A stretch of 24,000 bases of DNA from an uncultured Acidobacteriota bacterium. Its GTDB lineage: Bacteria > Acidobacteriota > Terriglobia > UBA7540. The position numbers and the translations under genes were made by a program. The stretch lies in contig CAWEFC010000006.1 of assembly GCA_963808085.1 (NCBI GenBank), forward strand, positions 137,328 to 161,327. Reading direction: 5' to 3'. A model generated the notes under the pieces. That model did not search any database. It was not told where the DNA came from and saw only the letters and a list, made by a program, of their open reading frames with translations. Each line of letters starts with the position of its first letter. Positions within the stretch are counted from its first letter, which is position 1. Of this stretch, positions 4,358 to 23,504 are shown one piece after another.

Positions 4358-6214
4358 TCAGGCTCGAACCAACTGGTCCTCTTCCGGTGATTGTGCCACC
4401 GGGCGCGGTGGAGGAATGTAGCCCTCGGGCAAGTCTCCATTGTCAGGGCGCAGGTATTGCAAATAACGTGGCTTGAGGGAGGCGACCAGCTCGCGGCGCG
4501 TTTTGGTTTTGAGCGGCCGGCCAGGATAAATCTTTCCCACCCGCGCGAGCATTTTCTCCGAGAGCAGTCCGGAGAACATCACGAGCGGCCATTTAAAGTT
4601 CGGGCCATTCGTGCGCCGCAGCTTCAGAAGCCAGACGATGAGCGAGCCGAATTTCCACATAAGCGGCGCCCACCAAGTGTTGGAGGTCGGACCTAAATCC
4701 ATCTTCCAACACTTCATGATGATTTGCCACTGCAGCGGCGTAAGCTGCCGCGTCTCGGAAACGCCATGCTGCTTTTCCATGCGCGTGTCGTGCAGCGGGG
4801 TGAAGATGGATGGGACGAGAATGGCGAAAAGGCCACGGCGCTCGATTTCATAGAGCAAGTCGAGGGTGGCCCGCGAATCGTCGTCGGTCTCGCCGGGATT
4901 GCCCACCATCAATGTCATCACGGGGAACCAGTTGTTTTCATTGGCTACACGCAGGCCTTCCAGAATTACACTGGGCCAGTCGTCGATGGAGAACGGCACA
5001 CCCTTACTGGGCATGATCTGCTTGGCCATACGCACCGACCCGGTTTCAAATCCGATCAGCGGCGAGAGCGCGCGCTTCTCCGGGTGCGTGCTCAGGCGAA
5101 TGCGCACGGGGCTCTTGTCGAGAATCTTCGCGGAGAGTTGTTTGATCAGCAGCGGGTCGACAACAAAGGGCGCCATGGTGCTGTGGCTCAGCAGGTGGCT
5201 CTTCACGCCGGGGGTATCGACAATGTCGGTGTAGAGAGATACCAGCGCCTCGCGATTGGGAAAGAAAAACGGCGTGCCGGTCCGCACCTGGCCCCAAATA
5301 AACATGTCCTCGGTGGCCAGGGAAATCTGATTGTTACCCTCGCGGACGTTGGCGCGAACCGCCGCCATGATCTTGTCTTTGGGAACATCAAGTTGCGGAT
5401 TCAAGTCGGGCACGCAGAACTGGCATCGCCGCCCGCAGCCAGTGGTCATTTCGATGACGCCAAACGTGGTGCGCTTTTCCGGCACCAGAATGGCCTCGCG
5501 GTCCATGGGATGCGCCACGTTGACCTCGCGGGGCAGGGGTTCACCCCGGACGGCCTGGTGAAACAGGCTGACGGCGTCCACCGATTCGCTGCGTCCTTCC
5601 ACCACGCAATCCACGCTCAAACTCTCGAAGCTGTTGGTTTGGGTGATCTGCCAGCCGCCTGATCCACCCACGATGACTTTGAAATTCTGGCGGAAGGGAT
5701 TGGCCTTGATCTTCGCGAACATCATCTTGGCGTAGTGAGAATTAATGGGTTCTTTCGAAGATCCAAACATCGAGGTGTAAACACCCGCGGCGAACGTGAC
5801 GCCGAGCGGGTTATGGGTTGAGACGCCGACCGCGCGCGTTCGAGGGCCGAGGAATTTGTCGAGATCGTCGGGATAGCAAACCACGATGTCTTCAGGGCGA
5901 AATTCCCTCAGCAGGGATTTTTCCACCAGGCGCACGCCCGCCGGCATGTAACGCGCTGTACCATCGGCGTTGTGTTCCACCTTGCGCCACGTGGGGTATT
6001 TATCGTTAATGACGAATTCCATCCAGATCGGCAAAGAAGCCAGGGCCATCTGAATGAAATAGCCGGCGTGATCGATGGTCTCGGTCAGCGGAGCCGTCAG
6101 GACGATGAGCTTGCCGCCGTCCGCAGGCGGTGCGTATGGTGGAGCAACGACCCCGCCACGATGCGTGCCGTTGCCGTTCGTATGGCTGTTCCCACGGAAC
6201 AGACCTTTAAGCAT
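4358..6214 (-). CDS. Radical SAM protein with N-terminal B12-binding-like domain and extended C-terminal region
   Basis: 618 aa. The CxxxCxxC cluster motif is in TTGCGRRCQFCVPD, preceded by a Rossmann-like segment (KVIVGGSGG). Convergent with gad. Confidence 0.8.
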   Translation of the reverse strand: MLKGLFRGNSHTNGNGTHRGGVVAPPYAPPADGGKLIVLTAPLTETIDHAGYFIQMALASLPIWMEFVINDKYPTWRKVEHNADGTARYMPAGVRLVEKSLLREFRPEDIVVCYPDDLDKFLGPRTRAVGVSTHNPLGVTFAAGVYTSMFGSSKEPINSHYAKMMFAKIKANPFRQNFKVIVGGSGGWQITQTNSFESLSVDCVVEGRSESVDAVSLFHQAVRGEPLPREVNVAHPMDREAILVPEKRTTFGVIEMTTGCGRRCQFCVPDLNPQLDVPKDKIMAAVRANVREGNNQISLATEDMFIWGQVRTGTPFFFPNREALVSLYTDIVDTPGVKSHLLSHSTMAPFVVDPLLIKQLSAKILDKSPVRIRLSTHPEKRALSPLIGFETGSVRMAKQIMPSKGVPFSIDDWPSVILEGLRVANENNWFPVMTLMVGNPGETDDDSRATLDLLYEIERRGLFAILVPSIFTPLHDTRMEKQHGVSETRQLTPLQWQIIMKCWKMDLGPTSNTWWAPLMWKFGSLIVWLLKLRRTNGPNFKWPLVMFSGLLSEKMLARVGKIYPGRPLKTKTRRELVASLKPRYLQYLRPDNGDLPEGYIPPPRPVAQSPEEDQLVRA

Positions 6215-6646
6215 GCCAATGCTCCGAGTGAAGATTCGCCGAATGTAAGCTTGGCTTGTCCAGGCGCCCTGAACTCTGATCTAACGCGCTTTCAAATTCT
6301 ACCCGAAATGAATTGCTGAATCCATAACTATTGAGGGACGGGTCAGGATTTCGTCATTGTCTCGTGAAAATTCGCCTTGGGAGTCATGGCGAAAACTTGG
6401 CTATGAGCCCGATGTGAGCGGCCACGCGCGATGGAAAACCCAACTTTCTCACCATGTGAAAATTTCTCTTGCATTCCCGCTTTTTCCTATGGCGATATTG
6501 CTTTGCGTAGGAAAACGCCCGATATGGTCTATACAACATCCAATTCGCAGCTCGGTCGGCTCCGGCCAAGCGGCGGCAAAGACTGCACCCGGGCGTCACT
6601 CGAGCCCCTTCGGTAAGGTTCGACGGTCCTGACCTGCGCTCTTCCT

Positions 6647-6652
6647 CATAAT
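6647..6652 (+). promoter_or_regulatory. Candidate -10 box CATAAT placed 5-7 nt before the first Y-RNA-like module
   Basis: CATAAT at 6647-6652. Module 0 starts at G6657. No convincing -35 was found, so this is weak. Confidence 0.25.
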
Positions 6653-6656
6653 TTTT

Positions 6657-6726
6657 GACTGGGTGGCGCCGATGGCGGCTACATCGATTTGAAAACCGAC
6701 TGCCGCCGTTACTTGTTCCCCCAGTC
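6657..6726 (+). ncRNA. Y-RNA-like module 0 (short, degenerate)
   Basis: Terminal stem GACUGGG/CCCAGUC (6657-6663 with 6720-6726). The 3' strand carries the shared CUUGUUCC motif. Upper helix is GGCGGC/GCCGCC. The 5' strand has a 4-nt bulge where the other modules have a single U. Confidence 0.35.
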
Positions 6727-6732
6727 GGGTTC

Positions 6733-6821
6733 GGCCAGTGGTGAAGGTTGCGGTTACTTCGTGGCAGACCTTGTAAAAGGTGGGGTTCGAATCCCCGGTC
6801 CGCGCCACTAGTTCCCTGGCC
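6733..6821 (+). ncRNA. Y-RNA-like module 1 (Ro-binding-like stem plus GNRA hairpin plus T-arm-like hairpin)
   Basis: Stem layout: GGCCAG/CUGGCC, bulged U, GG/CC, bulged U, GA/UU, asymmetric internal loop, then GG(U)UGCGG/CCGCGCC. The apex holds ACCUU-GUAA-AAGGU (6768-6781) and GGGG-UUCGAAU-CCCC (6782-6796). Confidence 0.55.
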
Positions 6822-6827
6822 CTAATT

Positions 6828-6993
6828 TCGCCGGTGGTGAAAGGTAAGGGTTACTTCGCCGCCAACCAACAACGCGCAGAGGCGGGCGCCTCTGCCAGGG
6901 CTTGAGCTAGCCGGGACGGGAGCGTAGCTCCGATTCGCCAGGTTCCGGCGGGTGATGCCTTGAGTTGGTCCCTTGCCGCAAGTTCCCCGGCGA
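6828..6993 (+). ncRNA. Y-RNA-like module 2 (long, multi-hairpin apex)
   Basis: Stem layout: UCGCCGG/CCGGCGA, bulged U, GG/CC, bulged U, GA/UU, internal loop, then GGUAAGGG/CCCUUGCC (8 bp, one U-G). The apex contains GCAGAGGC-GGGC-GCCUCUGC and GGAGC-GUA-GCUCC. It shares the 9-mer GCGTAGCTC with the D-arm region of module 3. Confidence 0.5.
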
Positions 6994-7007
6994 GCGTTTC
7001 AGTACGT

Positions 7008-7085
7008 TTCACCGCCGAGGCGCTGAGGCGCAGAGAAGAGATCTCGCGTTTGCAAACCTCAGCGCCTTGGCGTCTCAGTGGTGAA
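7008..7085 (+). other. Long imperfect hairpin between modules 2 and 3
   Basis: UUUCACC/GGUGAAA (7 bp) encloses GCCGAGGCGCUGAGG/CCUCAGCGCCUUGGC (15 bp, one G-U). The 3' side contains another CAG-U-GG-U-GA-A motif with no matching GUUCC partner. Confidence 0.4.
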
Positions 7086-7093
7086 AAAGCAAG

Positions 7094-7230
7094 TTCGGAC
7101 GGTGGTGAAGACTTGGGTTACTTCGCCTTGTAAGCGGGTGGTGCAGGTTCGAATCCTGTCGTGGGCATAAGACGCCCGCGTAGCTCAGTGGTAGAGCACC
7201 TATACCCAGTCGCTTGTTCCCCGTCCGGAA
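7094..7230 (+). ncRNA. YrlA-like Y RNA (module 3): Ro-binding-like stem capped by a circularly permuted tRNA-like domain
   Basis: Stem layout: CGGACGG/CCGUCCG (7096-7102 with 7221-7227), bulged U, GG/CC, bulged U, GA/UU, internal loop, then UUGGGU/ACCCAG. The apex reads in this order:
- anticodon-like arm UUCGC-CUUGUAA-GCGGG
- UGGU
- T arm GCAGG-UUCGAAU-CCUGU
- CGUGGGC, loop AUAAGAC, GCCCGCG (a closed acceptor stem)
- UA
- D arm GCUC-AGUGGUA-GAGC. Confidence 0.7.
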
Positions 7231-7239
7231 GATGAATCA

Positions 7240-7360
7240 GGGGTTAGGGGTCAGGGATTAGGGGTTAGGGGCCTAGGGCTTATGGTTCGAGTGTGGCCCA
7301 GCGGTTCTCGGTAGAACGTAGTTGGTTTTCCCTAACCCCTAATCCCTGACCCCTAACCCC
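7240..7360. repeat. Perfect 31-bp inverted repeat of G-rich heptamers flanking a 59-nt loop
   Basis: GGGGTTAGGGGTCAGGGATTAGGGGTTAGGG (7240-7270) is the exact reverse complement of 7330-7360. The left arm reads as heptamers GGGGTTA GGGGTCA GGGATTA GGGGTTA. Confidence 0.9.
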
Positions 7361-7397
7361 AAACCCCGTGTCCCGTAACGAAAGGAGGCACCGCATC

Positions 7398-8717
7398 ATG
7401 GCACGTTTGAATCTGCAGAATTGGCGGTCGTGGCTTGCTCACCGCACGCACGAAGGTGGGCCGGCCAAGACCATTACGCCGGAGCTGGAGCTTCGGCGCT
7501 CGGTAATGGCCTGCTTGCTTTGGGAGGACCAGTTCTACGAGGACGGAGTCGCCATCGCCGGCCGCATCGCCGAGTTGGTTCCTCGCGTCGAGGCCGGCCA
7601 TGTGGCGGACATCGCCATTGAAGCGCGCGAAAAGATGCACTTGCGGCATGCGCCTCTCTTGCTCGTGCGGGAGATGGCCCGGCACTCGACGCACCGCGCG
7701 CTGGTGGGAGAGACGCTGGCGCGGGTCATTCAGTGCGCCGACGAGCTCACCGAGTTCCTGGCCATCTACTGGAAGGACGGCCGTGTGCCGCTTTCCGGGC
7801 AGGTGAAGAAGGGTTTGGCGGCGGCCTTCGGCAAGTTTGATGCCTACCAGCTTGCCAAGTACGACCGCCCAGGCCCCGTGCGCCTGCGCGACGTGCTCTT
7901 CCTCTCGCACGCCAAGCCTCGCGATGAGGCTCAGGCGGAAGTGTGGAAGGGTTTGGTGGAGGGCAAGCTCGCCTCGCCCGACACCTGGGAAGTAGCGCTT
8001 TCCGCGGGCGCCGACAAGCGTGCGGCGTGGGAGCGGCTGATCCAGGAGCGCAAGCTCGGCGCGCTGGCCTTGCTGCGGAACCTCCGCAACATGCAGGCAG
8101 CCGGGGTGGAGCGGGAACTCGTGCTGGGCGCGATCCGTTCCATGCGCACGGACCGGGTTCTGCCCTTCCGCTTCATCGCCGCCGCGCGCCACGCCCCGCA
8201 GTGGGAGGAGGCGCTGGAAGAGGCCATGCTCAAGAGCCTCGCCGAGCGCCCCAAGCTGCCGGGGAAGACCGTGCTGCTGGTGGACGTCTCCGGCAGCATG
8301 ACGGCGGCCCTGTCGCGCCAGTCGGAAATGTTGCGTACCGACGCGGCACACGGGCTGGCGATTCTGCTGCGCGAACTCGCCGAGCGGGCAAGCATCTACA
8401 GCTTCTCGAACAAGCTGGTGGAGGTTCCCGCGCGGCACGGCTTCGCCTTGCGCGATGCCATTGACCAGAGCCAGACCCACGGGGGCACCCTGCTCGGTGG
8501 AGCTCTCGCGGGGATGCAGAAACGGTTCGACCGCCTCATCGTCATCACCGACGAGCAGGCGCACGACAAGGTTCCTGCTCCCCGGGGCCGCGGCTACGTC
8601 ATCAACGTGGGCAGCTTTAAGAATGGCGTGGGCTACGGCGAGTGGGTGCACATCGACGGCTGGAGCGAAGCCGTGATCGAATACATCCGCTCGCTGGAAG
8701 AACTCCGCGCCGATTAG
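7398..8717 (+). CDS. rsr: TROVE-domain / vWA-domain protein (Ro60 ortholog-like, Rsr)
   Basis: The N-terminal region (HEGGPAKTITPELELRRSVMACLLWEDQFYEDG...) resembles the bacterial TROVE module. The C-terminal vWA domain has a MIDAS motif in VLLVDVSGSM. AAAGGAGG lies 9 nt upstream of ATG 7398; the track's GTG at 7368 would sit inside the inverted repeat. The Y-RNA-like array directly upstream on the same strand supports the call. Confidence 0.75.
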   Translation: MARLNLQNWRSWLAHRTHEGGPAKTITPELELRRSVMACLLWEDQFYEDGVAIAGRIAELVPRVEAGHVADIAIEAREKMHLRHAPLLLVREMARHSTHRALVGETLARVIQCADELTEFLAIYWKDGRVPLSGQVKKGLAAAFGKFDAYQLAKYDRPGPVRLRDVLFLSHAKPRDEAQAEVWKGLVEGKLASPDTWEVALSAGADKRAAWERLIQERKLGALALLRNLRNMQAAGVERELVLGAIRSMRTDRVLPFRFIAAARHAPQWEEALEEAMLKSLAERPKLPGKTVLLVDVSGSMTAALSRQSEMLRTDAAHGLAILLRELAERASIYSFSNKLVEVPARHGFALRDAIDQSQTHGGTLLGGALAGMQKRFDRLIVITDEQAHDKVPAPRGRGYVINVGSFKNGVGYGEWVHIDGWSEAVIEYIRSLEELRAD

Positions 8718-8720
8718 CAG

Positions 8721-8763
8721 CGGCCGGCCGGGAAGAACGTTCTCCCGGCTGGCCGTTTCTTTG
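8721..8763 (+). terminator. Rho-independent terminator after rsr
   Basis: CGGCCGGCCGGGAAGAAC / GTTCTCCCGGCTGGCCG forms a near-perfect hairpin starting 4 nt after the TAG, followed by TTTCTTTG. Confidence 0.7.
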
Positions 8764-9604
8764 TGTCGGGGCAATCCGCTTTGGCCTCGCTCGCTTGGGC
8801 GTACTTGGCCCTCCGCTAAATGACTTATTTTCAGATACTTATTCGGATACCACAAAGTCCGTAGTCATAAGTAACTTATTTTCTTCAAGTTATCCGGGTA
8901 GTGGGAATGGAGCGGAAAAATGGGGAGTTTTTCGAGTCAAAGATCGATGTAACTAGGTTTGTTTTCTATAATTAATCGGCTATTTTATATAACTATATTG
9001 TTTTCAAATACTTGGTGGCTTCCGCCATTTTGTCAGAAATTTGTCCGTTTTTTTCAATAACTTATCGGGACCACCCTTCATTTCGACATCTTTTTTATTT
9101 TCGCTGGTGGGCTTGATTAGCATCGATAAAATGTCGATTGGTACGGCCTTCGGAGGATCAATTCGTCGCTTCCTCTCTCGACTTCCGGCCCGCAGGAGGG
9201 GCTTTTTCCACCCCGCAGAAGGCGCGCGAATTCACACAACCAACCTGGAGCCAAGCAATCTTGTCTCCAAACTCTGCGCCGACCCGACAGGCTGTCCAGT
9301 AACAGGAAGAATCTTCTTGTCGAATTATCGCCCGATGTTCCGGGGACTACGTTCCGGAGGCACCTCGTTTTCTGGTTCTGGAGTGGCGGAAGGTGGCCGC
9401 TGCCAAGCCTCGTGGACCGAAGGCAGAGACCGTTGACTTTCGCCCCACCGCGACGGTCCCAGCCGCCACCCGTGCGAAAACCAGTGTAACGAGTGTCCTG
9501 TCCCCGGGTCCCCGGATGACGGTCTGCGGAAAAGATTGGATAGGGCAGATTCAAGATTTAACAACAAGCTCCGCCTGTAACTACTGTACGTCGCGGGTCT
9601 CTGC

Positions 9605-9934
9605 TCACTCCAGACGATCGCGACGTAGGAATGCTTCGAGGTCTCGTGAGGCGTGGACGACCCGAAGAATCTCTACTCCATCCGGGCGCGGTCGGTAGAG
9701 TACGAGCATTCTCTCGAAGCCCGAGACTCGAAACACCCGCAAAGCGACAAGAGCAGGGTTCTTGAGGCGAGAATACCATCCCATGTTGGGCTGGGTGGCG
9801 AGGAGCGAAAATGTTTCGTGGGCTGCGAGGAGAAAGTTGTGACCAACTTTGGGGCTTGCGTGAGTAGCAAGATAATAAGCCTGGTCGTCAAGATCTTGAT
9901 CGGCCTTGGGGCGAATAACGTAGCGGGCACTCAG
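9605..9934 (-). CDS. parE: ParE/RelE-family toxin (109 codons, no ATG/GTG/TTG start; candidate CTG start overlapping the antitoxin stop)
   Basis: Manual translation gives (L/M)SARYVIRPKADQDLDDQAYYLATHASPKVGHNFLLAAHETFSLLATQPNMGWYSRLKNPALVALRVFRVSGFERMLVLYRPRPDGVEILRVVHASRDLEAFLRRDRLE*. This has typical ParE architecture and length. The frame opens after a TGA. The only plausible start is CTG at 9934-9932, within CTGA, which overlaps the antitoxin TGA stop. Absent from the ORF track. Confidence 0.65.
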   Translation of the reverse strand: MSARYVIRPKADQDLDDQAYYLATHASPKVGHNFLLAAHETFSLLATQPNMGWYSRLKNPALVALRVFRVSGFERMLVLYRPRPDGVEILRVVHASRDLEAFLRRDRLE

Positions 9935-10173
9935 CGAGTACCGGTCTTCTTCAGGCGTTCATCCAACGAGCGATGTTTGGCTTCCCAATAACCCGGCCCG
10001 GTCTCGATTGGTTCGCCGGAATAGAGACCTTCGAGGGCCAAAGCTTCAAGCTCGTCCTCTGCCCGCTGCTCAGCGCGGACCAAACGCTCGACATAGGCTT
10101 CCACCGTAAGTCCGTCAGCCTCCGCTCGGGAGCGGAGCCTTACTTCGAGCTCGGGATGGATCGCAATCGTCAT
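9931..10173 (-). CDS. parD: ParD-type antitoxin
   Basis: MTIAIHPELEVRLRSRAEADGLTVEAYVERLV...LEGLYSGEPIETGPGYWEAKHRSLDERL resembles ParD-family antitoxins. The ORF-track version extends to 10260; the shorter ATG at 10173 gives the usual 80-aa size. Start is uncertain. Confidence 0.7.
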   Translation of the reverse strand: MTIAIHPELEVRLRSRAEADGLTVEAYVERLVRAEQRAEDELEALALEGLYSGEPIETGPGYWEAKHRSLDERLKKTGTR

Positions 10174-10465
10174 GGGGCTTTCGCTCGTGCTGACAAAAGC
10201 CATTTTACGACATTTTCGCTCAACGGTCGAGCGGCGTAGCGCAGCGCGGCGGAGCCGCAACCAAACAGGATCACCACAGAAACCGCAGAGTGTCTGCCCG
10301 CCTTTGGCGGGTCCATAGTGCCGGAAACTTCCCGTTGCCGTTACGAATAATCAATAACTTACGTGAAGTTTCTGGAGAGACCACGGAGGCAGAACACCGA
10401 GCACGTTTTGCTTCGTGGGCTCTGTACTACTATTCCCGAGATTCTGCGCAGCGTGCAAAGGTTTT

Positions 10466-10517
10466 GTGCCACGGGCATCCTGCCCGTGCTCGAGCATGGC
10501 CAGGATGGCCATGGCAC
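10466..10517. repeat. REP-like compound palindrome centred on CTCGAG
   Basis: There are two adjacent perfect hairpins, CACGGGCA-TCC-TGCCCGTG and CATGGCCA-GGA-TGGCCATG. The two halves are also imperfect reverse complements of each other (19 of 23 positions). Confidence 0.6.
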
Positions 10518-10526
10518 GGCGGGTAG

Positions 10527-10562
10527 CCACGGTCAACGTTTTTTTGACCGTGGTCTTTTCTC
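10527..10562 (+). terminator. Intrinsic-terminator-like hairpin with no obvious upstream + strand gene
   Basis: CCACGGTCAA-cgttttt-TTGACCGTGG (10-bp perfect stem) followed by TCTTTTCTC. Confidence 0.45.
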
Positions 10563-10782
10563 ACGCCATTACTCCGATCATTGTTATAAGCGCCGTCGCG
10601 ACAATAATTCAACTTCGTTCGACATCGAGGGGAAAACCCAAGGACAGGAAAGCACTGTCCGTGGCTACCCACCTAACCCGCGGCCCCTAATCCCTAAATT
10701 CCCCGCCGAGCAAACCTCGACGCATCAGATCTGGTATGTTAGTTTTAAATCTTCTTAAGCATTTTGGCTGGAAGTGAGGCAC

Positions 10783-22904: not shown

Positions 22905-22981
22905 GCGCGGGTGATGCAATGGGCAGACATGGCGGTCTCAAAAACCGCTTCTTGTGGGTTCAAATCCCTCTCCGCGCACCA
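22905..22981 (+). tRNA. tRNA with Leu anticodon CAA, 77 nt, short (5-nt) variable loop, CCA encoded
   Basis: Manual fold:
- acceptor GCGCGGG/TCCGCGC
- D arm ATG(C)-AATGGGCAG-(A)CAT
- anticodon arm GCGGT-CTCAAAA-ACCGC
- variable TTCTT
- T arm GTGGG-TTCAAAT-CCCTC (one mismatch)
- A73, then CCA. Confidence 0.75.
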
Positions 22982-22982
22982 G

Positions 22983-23073
22983 GGAAGCGTGGCTCAGTGG
23001 CGACGGCAGCGGGCTGTAGACCCGCCACCCCTTGTGGGTAACACCGAAGGTTCGACTCCTTCCGCTTCCACCA
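22983..23073 (+). tRNA. tRNA-Tyr (GUA), 91 nt, long variable region, CCA encoded
   Basis: Manual fold:
- acceptor GGAAGCG/CGCTTCC
- anticodon arm GCGGG-CTGTAGA-CCCGC
- ~20-nt variable region CACCCCTTGTGGGTAACACC
- T arm GAAGG-TTCGACT-CCTTC
- A73, then CCA. Confidence 0.8.
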
Positions 23074-23079
23074 AGATTT

Positions 23080-23158
23080 GCCGGGATGGTCAAAATGGCA
23101 AAGGCGCTCCGTTCAGACCGGAGAGATTTTGCGAGTTCGACTCTCGCTCCCGGCACCA
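23080..23158 (+). tRNA. tRNA with Leu anticodon CAG, 79 nt, short (7-nt) variable loop, CCA encoded
   Basis: Manual fold:
- acceptor GCCGGGA/TCCCGGC
- D arm GTC-AAAATGGCAAA-GGC
- anticodon arm CTCCG-TTCAGAC-CGGAG
- variable AGATTTT
- T arm GCGAG-TTCGACT-CTCGC
- A73, then CCA. Confidence 0.75.
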
Positions 23159-23164
23159 AGTTCG

Positions 23165-23238
23165 GCCCAAGTGACGCAATCGGTAGACGTGCCACTTTGA
23201 GATGGTGGATGTTGGAGGTTCGAATCCTCTCTTGGGCA
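23165..23238 (+). tRNA. tRNA with Leu anticodon GAG, 74 nt to the discriminator, short (5-nt) variable loop, CCA not fully encoded (ACC then next tRNA)
   Basis: Manual fold:
- acceptor GCCCAAG/CTTGGGC
- D arm ACG(C)-AATCGGTAG-(A)CGT
- anticodon arm CCACT-TTGAGAT-GGTGG
- variable ATGTT
- T arm GGAGG-TTCGAAT-CCTCT
- A73. Confidence 0.75.
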
Positions 23239-23240
23239 CC

Positions 23241-23328
23241 GGAAGAATGGCCGAGCGGTAAGGCACCGAGTTGCTAACTCGGAGTCTGGGTAAAACCGGC
23301 GCAGGTTCGATCCCTGTTTCTTCCGCCA
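23241..23328 (+). tRNA. tRNA-Ser (GCU), 88 nt, long variable arm, CCA encoded
   Basis: Manual fold:
- acceptor GGAAGAA/TTCTTCC
- D region GCCGAGCGGTAAGGCA
- anticodon arm CCGAG-TTGCTAA-CTCGG
- 18-nt variable arm
- T arm GCAGG-TTCGATC-CCTGT
- G73, then CCA. Confidence 0.85.
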
Positions 23329-23335
23329 AATTTTC

Positions 23336-23425
23336 GGAAGGTTGGCCGAGTCCGGTAAGGCTCCGGTCCTGAAAACCGGTGACTCCGTAAAAGGAGCAGG
23401 GGTTCGAATCCTCTACCTTCCGCCA
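23336..23425 (+). tRNA. tRNA-Ser (UGA), 90 nt, long variable arm, C at position 33, CCA encoded
   Basis: Manual fold:
- acceptor GGAAGGT/ACCTTCC
- D region GCCGAGTCCGGTAAGGCT
- anticodon arm CCGGT-CCTGAAA-ACCGG
- variable arm TGACTCCGTAAAAGGAGC
- T arm AGGGG-TTCGAAT-CCTCT
- G73, then CCA. Confidence 0.8.
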
Positions 23426-23430
23426 ACATT

Positions 23431-23504
23431 GGGGCCATAGCGAAATGGCATAGCAGAAGTCTTAAACACTTCGTTTCCGGGTTCGAATCCCGGTGGCCCC
23501 ACCA
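23431..23504 (+). tRNA. tRNA with Leu anticodon UAA, 74 nt, short (4-nt) variable loop, CCA encoded
   Basis: Manual fold:
- acceptor GGGGCCA/TGGCCCC
- D arm GCGA-AATGGCA-TAGC
- anticodon arm GAAGT-CTTAAAC-ACTTC
- variable GTTT
- T arm CCGGG-TTCGAAT-CCCGG
- A73, then CCA. Confidence 0.75.

Follow-up and report, generated by a model that had tools for sequence, protein, structure and literature searches.

Introduction

YrlA RNAs adjoin the rsr gene, bind the Rsr protein and have T, D and acceptor-like arms, and they are modified by TruB and DusA (PMC4201824). They fold as a tRNA-like L (bioRxiv 10.1101/312249), and the description of YrlA as a circularly permuted tRNA look-alike with a closed acceptor has already been published (PMC4201824; bioRxiv 10.1101/312249). 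In the published view, the effector domain of YrlA consists of a tRNA elbow with variable appendages, and the effector is expected to read the elbow. The stem-loop upstream of the T arm was named 'V' by Chen et al. (2014), who reported that the V loop begins with a conserved YUAY and also defined the GNCGAAN0-1G motif (PMC4201824). Wang et al. (2018) described many YrlAs with long variable loops and short duplexes, and stated that the S. Typhimurium YrlA 'lacks the anticodon loop' (bioRxiv 10.1101/312249). Here, we analysed a candidate RNA at positions 7094-7230 of a 24,000-nucleotide (nt) stretch of Acidobacteriota DNA (hereafter, the window), on the + strand upstream of rsr. We consider it probable, at roughly 80%, that this element is a YrlA-type bacterial Y RNA that mimics the whole tRNA cloverleaf, has a composite anticodon stem and binds Rsr via its terminal stem.

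Both the family and the permuted-tRNA idea were already known, and the interpretation reached in an earlier reading of the DNA letters alone (the sequence-only reading) is partly right. What is new is the proposal that the 'V' stem-loop is a conserved mimic of the anticodon arm and that the permutation break lies inside the anticodon stem; covariation in two independent sequence sets backs it.

Results

A YrlA-type RNA upstream of rsr

The locus comprises the RNA and the gene downstream of it:

7094..7230, + strand: complete YrlA-type Y RNA of class A, with a tRNA-like domain and an anticodon-arm mimic (Rfam YrlA match, our own models R1 and R2, covariation)
7398..8717, + strand: rsr, the Ro60 orthologue (Pfam TROVE at 1e-15, plus vWA; 96% identity to a protein of an Acidobacteriota metagenome-assembled genome, MAG)

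The end of the Y RNA (7230) and the start of rsr (7398) are 168 nt apart, both on the + strand. YrlAs are recognised in part by placement on the same strand as, and within about 4 kb of, a Ro60/Rsr (TROVE) gene, and 7094-7230 is placed in this way. The Rfam YrlA family (RF02553) aligned over its full length (1-114 of 114) to 7102-7226 with 38.9 bits and an E value of 7e-7, the gathering score of the family being 69. The alignment contains an 11-nt insertion (gccuuguaagc) exactly where the hairpin described below sits, and this insertion in part explains the sub-threshold score.

Homologues were collected with two covariance models. R1 was built from the window element and its two closest homologues, and in Terriglobia genomes it retrieved full-length homologues, scoring up to 115 bits, from the region upstream of rsr. 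In total, R1 gave 255 module matches across the window and 80 rsr loci (81 sequences). Every one of these shares the strand of rsr, and nearly all precede that gene; the full architecture is common to about 45 of them. R2, a second model built on class A, gave 138 matches, referred to below as the viral set; they are distributed over 91 Ro60 loci, of which IMG/VR contributed 82 and phages and plasmids in GenBank 9. Full-length homologues found with both models adjoin Ro60/TROVE genes on viral contigs, phages and plasmids. The Rfam E value of 7e-7 and the R1/R2 homologues beside Ro60/rsr genes support the proposal of the sequence-only reading that the element is a YrlA-type tRNA mimic. The YrlAs of a Rhodococcus plasmid and a Deinococcus plasmid share the 11-nt insertion (CA-UUUGGGA-UG-ACG and CA-UUCGGA-UG-ACG) and carry CGU after the D arm. 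A YrlA of the mycobacteriophage ET08 type was also sought, and the search returned weak Mycobacterium phage matches and no more.

Anatomy of the permuted cloverleaf

Every element listed in the sequence-only reading was found in its place by reading the sequence. The proposed anatomy of the RNA is as follows:

7094-7102 / 7221-7229, + strand: basal stem of 9 bp (covarying pairs: 6 of 9 in Terriglobia, all 9 in the viral set)
7104..7110, + strand: GGUGAAG, the counterpart of the GNCGAAN0-1G motif proposed as the Rsr contact (read from the sequence)
7110-7118 / 7204-7211, + strand: helix 2 of 8 bp, with U7114 bulged (5 of 8 pairs covary)
7119..7124, + strand: junction linker UACUUC, overlapping the conserved YUAY (UUAC, 7118-7121)
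7125..7135, + strand: lower anticodon stem, G7125-C7135 and C7126-G7134 (tRNA positions 30-31:39-40), and 7-nt loop CUUGUAA (7127-7133)
7136..7138, + strand: 3' strand of the upper anticodon stem (tRNA positions 41-43), pairing with 7199-7201
7139..7142, + strand: true variable loop UGGU, 4 nt (4-5 nt throughout class A)
7143..7159, + strand: T arm GCAGG-UUCGAAU-CCUGU (100% paired, 3 of 5 pairs covary)
7160..7180, + strand: acceptor stem of 7 bp, CGUGGGC (7160-7166) with GCCCGCG (7174-7180), closed by loop AUAAGAC (7167-7173) (6 of 7 pairs covary)
7181..7197, + strand: U8-A9 (UA, 7181-7182) and D arm GCUC-AGUGGUA-GAGC (7183-7197) (3 of 4 D-stem pairs covary)
7198..7201, + strand: A26 and 5' strand CCU of the upper anticodon stem (tRNA positions 27-29) (covariation)
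7204..7229, + strand: 3' strands of helix 2 (7204-7211) and basal stem (7221-7229) around the conserved GCUUGUUCC (7212-7220)

As expected of a YrlA, a motif of the GNCGAAN0-1G type lies inside the stem formed by the 5' and 3' ends, both parts of which covary, and the stem-loops of the T and D arms are split by an acceptor-like stem-loop and UA. The homologues read GGUGAAG, GGCGAAG or GGCGUAG at the motif, the window copy having U for C. The UACUUC linker is almost invariant in Terriglobia, phage and plasmid homologues, including those that have no hairpin. The window copy and its two closest relatives differ mostly by substitutions in the tRNA-like core and hardly at all in the Rsr-binding stems. 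In addition, G18G19 and UUCGA are both present in the window copy. The last base of the variable loop corresponds to position 48 and covaries with position 15 of the D loop (Levitt pair): class A has 25 G:C and 16 A:U pairs, and the viral set has 75 and 39, respectively. The acceptor 1:72 pair is present in the window and in most viral-set homologues, but in only 20 of 41 Terriglobia homologues.

Variants of this anatomy were also observed. In a class A module at L006:232-384, a tandem duplication lies within the D arm (GCTCAGTGGTAGCTCAGTGGTAGAAGC). In two further modules (L059:2244-2377 and L069:2801-2938), GUAGAGC, which is the 3' half of the D arm, precedes a hairpin (6 bp, 4-nt loop), AGGUC and the T arm, and the D-stem 5' strand comes after the acceptor stem. 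This order puts the permutation break of these variants inside the D loop and not in the anticodon stem.

Covariation favours a composite anticodon stem

Read from the sequence, 7122-7138 form a hairpin (UUCGC-CUUGUAA-GCGGG). A 5-bp hairpin with a 7-nt loop, U33 and a purine at position 37 (R37) arises in 0.3% of shuffles of a 17-mer of the same composition. Model score and the length of the stretch before the T arm were the only criteria by which we chose 44 Terriglobia class A homologues, which have in common the pattern UAC-UUCGC-CUNNNNA-GCGGG, then a loop of 4-5 nt and then the T arm. Among the R2 matches, 91 of 138 have a 7-nt loop at the hairpin site. The arms are thus conserved at homologous loci, in Terriglobia as well as on viral contigs, phages and plasmids, in line with the sequence-only reading.

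Two pairing models were compared on a gap-free mini-alignment of the class A homologues. In the continuous 5-bp hairpin, six cells are broken at each of two pairs, and the innermost pair alone covaries. In the composite model, the inner two pairs are kept and the three G's pair with the CCU that directly follows the D arm and A26. This upper stem shows compensation in Terriglobia, the combinations being GGG/CCU, CGG/CCG, CGU/ACG, AGG/CCU and CGG/CUG. A C or A at the equivalent of G7136 is matched by a compensating base after the D arm (GU 29, CG 4, AU 2); C7124, the partner of G7136 in the hairpin, never changes and leaves six broken pairs. The Rfam YrlA alignment also pairs 7136-7138 with 7199-7201. 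Moreover, in a MAFFT alignment of 41 full-length homologues, 91.6% of the cells are paired in the composite structure, compared with 38-46% in slid controls, and double-sided changes were found in 26 of the 38 pairs of the whole structure. In the viral set, the lower-stem pairs are of the types CG32/GC32/UA16/AU8 and AU41/CG35/UA16, and the upper-stem pairs of the types GC48/AU45/CG12/UA8 (middle pair) and GC74/UA15/CG12/AU9.

The resulting arm has the features of an anticodon stem-loop, namely a composite 5-bp stem below the D stem and position 26, a 7-nt loop, U33 and a purine at 37. By topology, covariation, loop length and loop signature, we assign the hairpin to the lower anticodon stem and loop. 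The complete permuted cloverleaf proposed from the sequence alone, anticodon arm included, is therefore present and conserved in the 44 homologues, with the amendment that its stem is composite rather than a single hairpin. A break at the 26/27 junction, as the sequence-only reading had it, does not agree with the covariation, which pairs G7137-G7138 (with or without G7136) with C7199-C7200 (with or without U7201), after the D arm and A26. Since these upper pairs follow the D arm, the break would lie within the 5' strand of the anticodon stem.

Folding of 7094-7230 as a single sequence gave a minimum free energy (MFE) structure of -57.7 kcal/mol (z -2.9), in which the T, acceptor and D hairpins predicted by the sequence-only reading are kept and the anticodon-like hairpin is lost. 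Pairs across the Ro stem are non-native in this structure, and it was set aside as evidence on the hairpin, about which it is uninformative.

Several observations weigh against the reading of the element as a YrlA with a composite anticodon arm. The Rfam YrlA score of 38.9 bits is below the gathering score of 69, and a scan of 6200-7450 for sigma-70-like promoters and intrinsic terminators found neither. The window copy has G15.U48 (7188 and 7142), which breaks the Levitt rule and is one of three exceptions among 44. For the window sequence alone, the nearest-neighbour energy is -51.0 kcal/mol for the continuous hairpin and -47.1 kcal/mol for the composite stem, and the MFE structure uses neither. 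Of 68 viral-set sequences whose loop is 7 nt, pairing is complete in both models for 35, in the hairpin model alone for 20 and in the composite model alone for 13. Finally, the viral-set alignment was fitted to the model structure, which inflates its pair counts; even so, the variety of pair types in this set is far beyond that of slid controls.

The continuous hairpin and the composite stem may both exist as conformers. The 20/13/35 split (hairpin alone, composite alone, both) leaves the third pair (29:41) ambiguous, and a nick one position higher is possible. UUC is invariant even in modules without the hairpin, and we therefore place the nick at 28/29-29/30.

We also considered that the hairpin might be a long variable arm of the class II kind, with the anticodon stem formed as a helix of the 5' and 3' segments and no mimic of an anticodon loop. 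The 'V' label of Chen et al. (2014), with YUAY at the start of the V loop, would agree with this, as would the long variable loops with short duplexes described by Wang et al. (2018), their S. Typhimurium YrlA without an anticodon loop, and the absence of any hairpin from phage YrlAs and from the Rfam consensus. A class II arm, however, is located 3' of positions 41-43 and 5' of position 48, whereas here the three bases covarying with 27-29 lie on the 3' side of the hairpin and are themselves followed by a variable loop of the normal 4-5 nt, which holds the Levitt partner. Furthermore, the 7-nt loop recurs in 91 of 138 independent matches, with U33, R37 and A38. A variable arm is thus an unlikely explanation of the hairpin.

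The loop frame is conserved while the anticodon triplet drifts

The loop of the Terriglobia class A homologues has C32 in 43/44, U33 in 43/44, R37 in 42/44 and A38 in 38/44, and that of the viral set has U33 in 71/73, R37 in 72/73 and A38 in 71/73. Positions 34-36 take 17 different triplets among the 44 homologues, although the acceptor stem is of one type throughout. Since the frame of pyrimidine 32, U33, purine 37 and A38 is kept while 34-36 drift, the anticodon-like loop is most likely a structural or enzyme-recognition mimic rather than a decoding element.

Descent from a tRNA with a UGU anticodon, as proposed in the sequence-only reading, is not supported by this pattern, because UGU is not conserved while the acceptor stem stays of one type. 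In its full form, this explanation holds that the element (the third module upstream of rsr) is a recently permuted descendant of tRNA-Thr(UGU), broken at 26/27, and that the first and second modules are progressively decayed duplicates. It gains some weight from ARAGORN, which calls the rotated window sequence tRNA-Thr(tgt), and from the continuous hairpin being the more stable of the two pairing models for the window sequence. The CUUGUAA loop, G1-C72, C2-G71 and A73 also fit what we take to be the identity elements of E. coli tRNA-Thr. However, the two closest orthologues (L001 and L002), whose Rsr proteins are 95-96% identical, carry a UGG triplet in the loops CUUGGCA and CUUGGGA, and the covariation pairs 41-43 with the strand after the D arm, against a break at 26/27. 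The ARAGORN call is a weak test: all 44 rotated class A homologues were called tRNAs, assigned to 13 different amino acids, and 256 of 300 controls with shuffled arms (85%) still passed. The call was accordingly rejected as evidence for the anticodon arm. The tRNA-Thr(UGU) gene of the source genome lies outside the window. Together with the module data below, these findings leave descent from tRNA-Thr already largely refuted and highly improbable.

A genuine tRNA gene at 7094-7230 was rejected, given that ARAGORN calls no tRNA there in native order, that the acceptor is closed by a loop and that the anticodon varies among orthologues. In native order, the Rfam tRNA model gave a partial match of 18.5 bits (E 0.67), with the acceptor loop-closed.

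The YrlA of M. smegmatis is cleaved by RNase P, after which CCA is added (PMC4201824). Chen et al. link a 7-bp acceptor stem to RNase P cleavage (PMC4201824), and the window copy has 7 bp. By the same route, RNase P might cut at 7173/7174, and 3' trimming with CCA addition would then yield a two-piece tRNA look-alike on Rsr that is aminoacylated or enters tRNA pathways. The full anticodon arm and the 1:72 pair kept in most viral-set homologues are compatible with such maturation, as are closing loops that start with NCCA (7/73). On the other hand, only 20 of the 41 Terriglobia homologues have the 1:72 pair, no CCA is encoded in the window loop AUAAGAC, and aminoacylation has not been reported for any Y RNA. 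A triplet that changes freely while the acceptor stem stays constant also speaks against a fixed amino-acid identity. We regard maturation of this kind as quite improbable. The NCCA-starting loops of the seven viral homologues (for example L166:1815-1958 and L081:1666-1837) resemble an encoded tRNA 3' end with a spacer; they fit the published proposal of a dimeric-tRNA origin and, possibly, maturation to a CCA end.

The dinucleotide at positions 36-37 is U-A in 19/44 and G-G in 14/44 Terriglobia homologues, and G-G was observed 11 times in the viral set compared with 1.8 expected. This non-random distribution might hypothetically reflect recognition by position-37 modification enzymes, and shared ancestry fits it equally well. 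The drifting 34-36 triplet within its conserved U33/R37/A38 frame and the U-A and G-G dinucleotides match what are presumably the determinants for t6A37 and for TrmD m1G37. As a speculative extension that we hold to be very doubtful, class A YrlAs would serve as full-length tRNA surrogates on the Ro60 ring and could be substrates, sensors or decoys of enzymes that act on the anticodon loop, modification enzymes or anticodon nucleases for example. If true, this would link Ro60 to tRNA-damage surveillance.

GenBank annotates a tRNA-Arg(tct) at L084 2129-2200 (Gordonia phage VanLee) and a tRNA-Gln at L081 1673-1740 (Caulobacter phage CcrColossus), both overlapping the 5' halves of class A YrlAs. 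The annotated anticodons are the YrlA loop triplets UCU and CUG, and ARAGORN makes similar tRNA calls on unrotated Terriglobia modules at 13 or more loci. The tRNA calls overlapping class A YrlAs in phages and Terriglobia are probably mis-annotated Y RNAs.

Distinct Y-RNA classes are arrayed upstream of rsr

At Terriglobia rsr loci (the window at 6636-7365; L001-L080), as many as about ten Y-RNA-like modules are arrayed on the strand of rsr. Several conserved classes can be told apart among them: modules of 96 nt with a T arm alone, modules of about 190 nt, class A, class B, whose 5-bp anticodon stem is continuous, and class C, which has a mini-hairpin. Loci resemble one another in the order of these classes, and many show the succession module 1 type, module 2 type, class A. 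Two such modules precede the YrlA in the window:

6730..6825, + strand: module 1, a separate Y-RNA-like class with a hairpin and T arm and without acceptor or D arm (R1 26.1 bits)
6826..6996, + strand: module 2, a separate Y-RNA-like class of about 190 nt, not tRNA-like (R1 20.7 bits)

The sequence-only reading took modules 1 and 2 for a duplication-and-decay series, and module 1 does hold CCUUGUAA together with a T arm. The CCUUGUAA of module 1 is, however, not conserved in orthologues, and neither is the GCGUAGCUC of module 2, which sits in a hairpin that reads GGGGGCGUCGUCCC in orthologues. Both types have structures of their own that are conserved across many genomes. Counting the window, at least 21 sequences (20 loci besides it) keep the 96-nt class, whose hairpin loops measure 4-8 nt, and at least 13 (12 other genomes besides it) keep the module 2 class, which has a consensus fold of 57 pairs. 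As judged from these sequences, modules 1 and 2 and class A are distinct conserved paralogues, and not a decay series.

Strong hairpins were also found at 7007-7086 and 6655-6729, with fold z-scores of -5.4 and -2.8, respectively. The former carries a second GGUGGUGAA motif (7079-7087) paired with UUUCACCGC; the latter has CUUGUUCCCCC in its 3' strand and resembles a Y RNA of the long-hairpin type. A long inverted repeat of GGGGTTA-like heptads and their complement occupies 7237-7365, between the YrlA and the start of rsr, and the locus L003 has tandem GGGACTC heptads at this place. The many matches of microRNA models to 7237-7365 are an artefact of this long inverted repeat.

Genomic surroundings

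The chromosome is that of an Acidobacteriota member (Terriglobia), and the genes around rsr are ordinary chromosomal ones. The nearest relatives of Rsr are found in Acidobacteriota/Terriglobia MAGs, at up to 96% identity. In the roughly 2 kb downstream of rsr (8717-10770), there is no open reading frame (ORF) with a Pfam match and no match to the Y-RNA models. A Pfam search of the ORFs downstream of rsr (8642-10758) and of the ORF at 6357-6632 gave no match, hence the gene context provides no effector candidate. At the gathering threshold, Rfam reports seven tRNAs at 22.9-23.5 kb of the window and nothing else. These seven genes (22905-23504) are four for tRNA-Leu, two for tRNA-Ser and one for tRNA-Tyr; the four tRNA-Leu are 71-79 nt long with short variable loops, which is unusual for bacterial tRNA-Leu.

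Discussion

The anatomy, conservation and covariation of the class A RNA were observed directly, and they point to a conserved anticodon stem-loop mimic in many YrlAs of several phyla and of phages, with the Ro-binding stem predicted to exit inside the anticodon stem. In the mechanism that we propose, the Y-RNA array is probably transcribed with or ahead of rsr and then processed. The terminal stem with GGUGAAG would bind the Rsr (Ro60) ring, and the rest of the RNA would form a tRNA-shaped effector domain that recruits or occupies a tRNA-binding factor. Mimicry would span the whole cloverleaf, including the T arm, the loop-closed 7-bp acceptor, U8-A9 with the D arm, the 4-nt variable loop and the composite anticodon arm. 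In this arm, C7199, C7200 and U7201 would pair with G7138, G7137 and G7136, with the mini-hairpin 7125-7135 below them, and the Rsr-binding stem would leave via a three-way junction at the nick (28/29-29/30). Rsr binding, co-transcription and processing, modification by TruB and Dus enzymes, and a tethered effector are all expected by analogy with the Y RNAs of Salmonella, M. smegmatis and D. radiodurans.

This assignment would change the structural model of YrlA, with a three-way junction in place of the kink, and would widen the candidate partners to proteins that read the anticodon loop. An anticodon-arm mimic also fits the dimeric-tRNA origin proposal, and it would explain why tRNA finders annotate the 5' halves of YrlAs in phage genomes as tRNA genes.

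The closest described systems are the YrlAs of S. Typhimurium and M. smegmatis. They share with the window copy the rsr neighbour on the same strand, the terminal stem of the GNCGAA type, YUAY and, for its class although not for the window copy itself, covariation of the Levitt pair, and they have the T arm, closed acceptor stem, UA and D arm in identical order. Compared with the Rfam/Salmonella YrlA consensus, the window copy adds an 11-nt hairpin, which would complete an anticodon stem-loop with three covarying pairs. In Salmonella YrlA, a kinked continuous stem (UA kink) occupies the place where the window has the hairpin and three-way junction. The window copy also scores below the Rfam gathering threshold and lies within an array of other Y-RNA classes.

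The published 'V' stem-loop of actinobacterial and other YrlAs is almost certainly the same structure as the window hairpin, since it is found at the same site, after YUAY and upstream of the T arm. In the published work it was taken as a class II-like variable arm, whereas here it is read as the lower anticodon stem and loop, with a separate variable loop of 4-5 nt. An 'anticodon arm' was also drawn by Chen et al. (2014) for Yrn1 of D. radiodurans, another Y RNA with a 5-bp anticodon-like stem. The Yrn1 arm, however, has a 6-nt loop and lies between T and D, at the acceptor position of YrlA, with the T and D elements oriented otherwise, and Yrn1 was judged an independent lineage.

Permuted tRNA genes of Cyanidioschyzon and some archaea, cited by Wang et al. 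(2018), resemble the window element in that the acceptor ends are joined by a loop and the transcript termini lie elsewhere in the cloverleaf. The enzymes that process permuted tRNAs have not been described for bacteria, according to Wang et al. (bioRxiv 10.1101/312249). The algal and archaeal transcripts become real tRNAs through a splicing endonuclease, which cuts a bulge-helix-bulge junction, and a ligase, whereas in the window element the anticodon is not conserved and the termini form a conserved stem that would bind Rsr.

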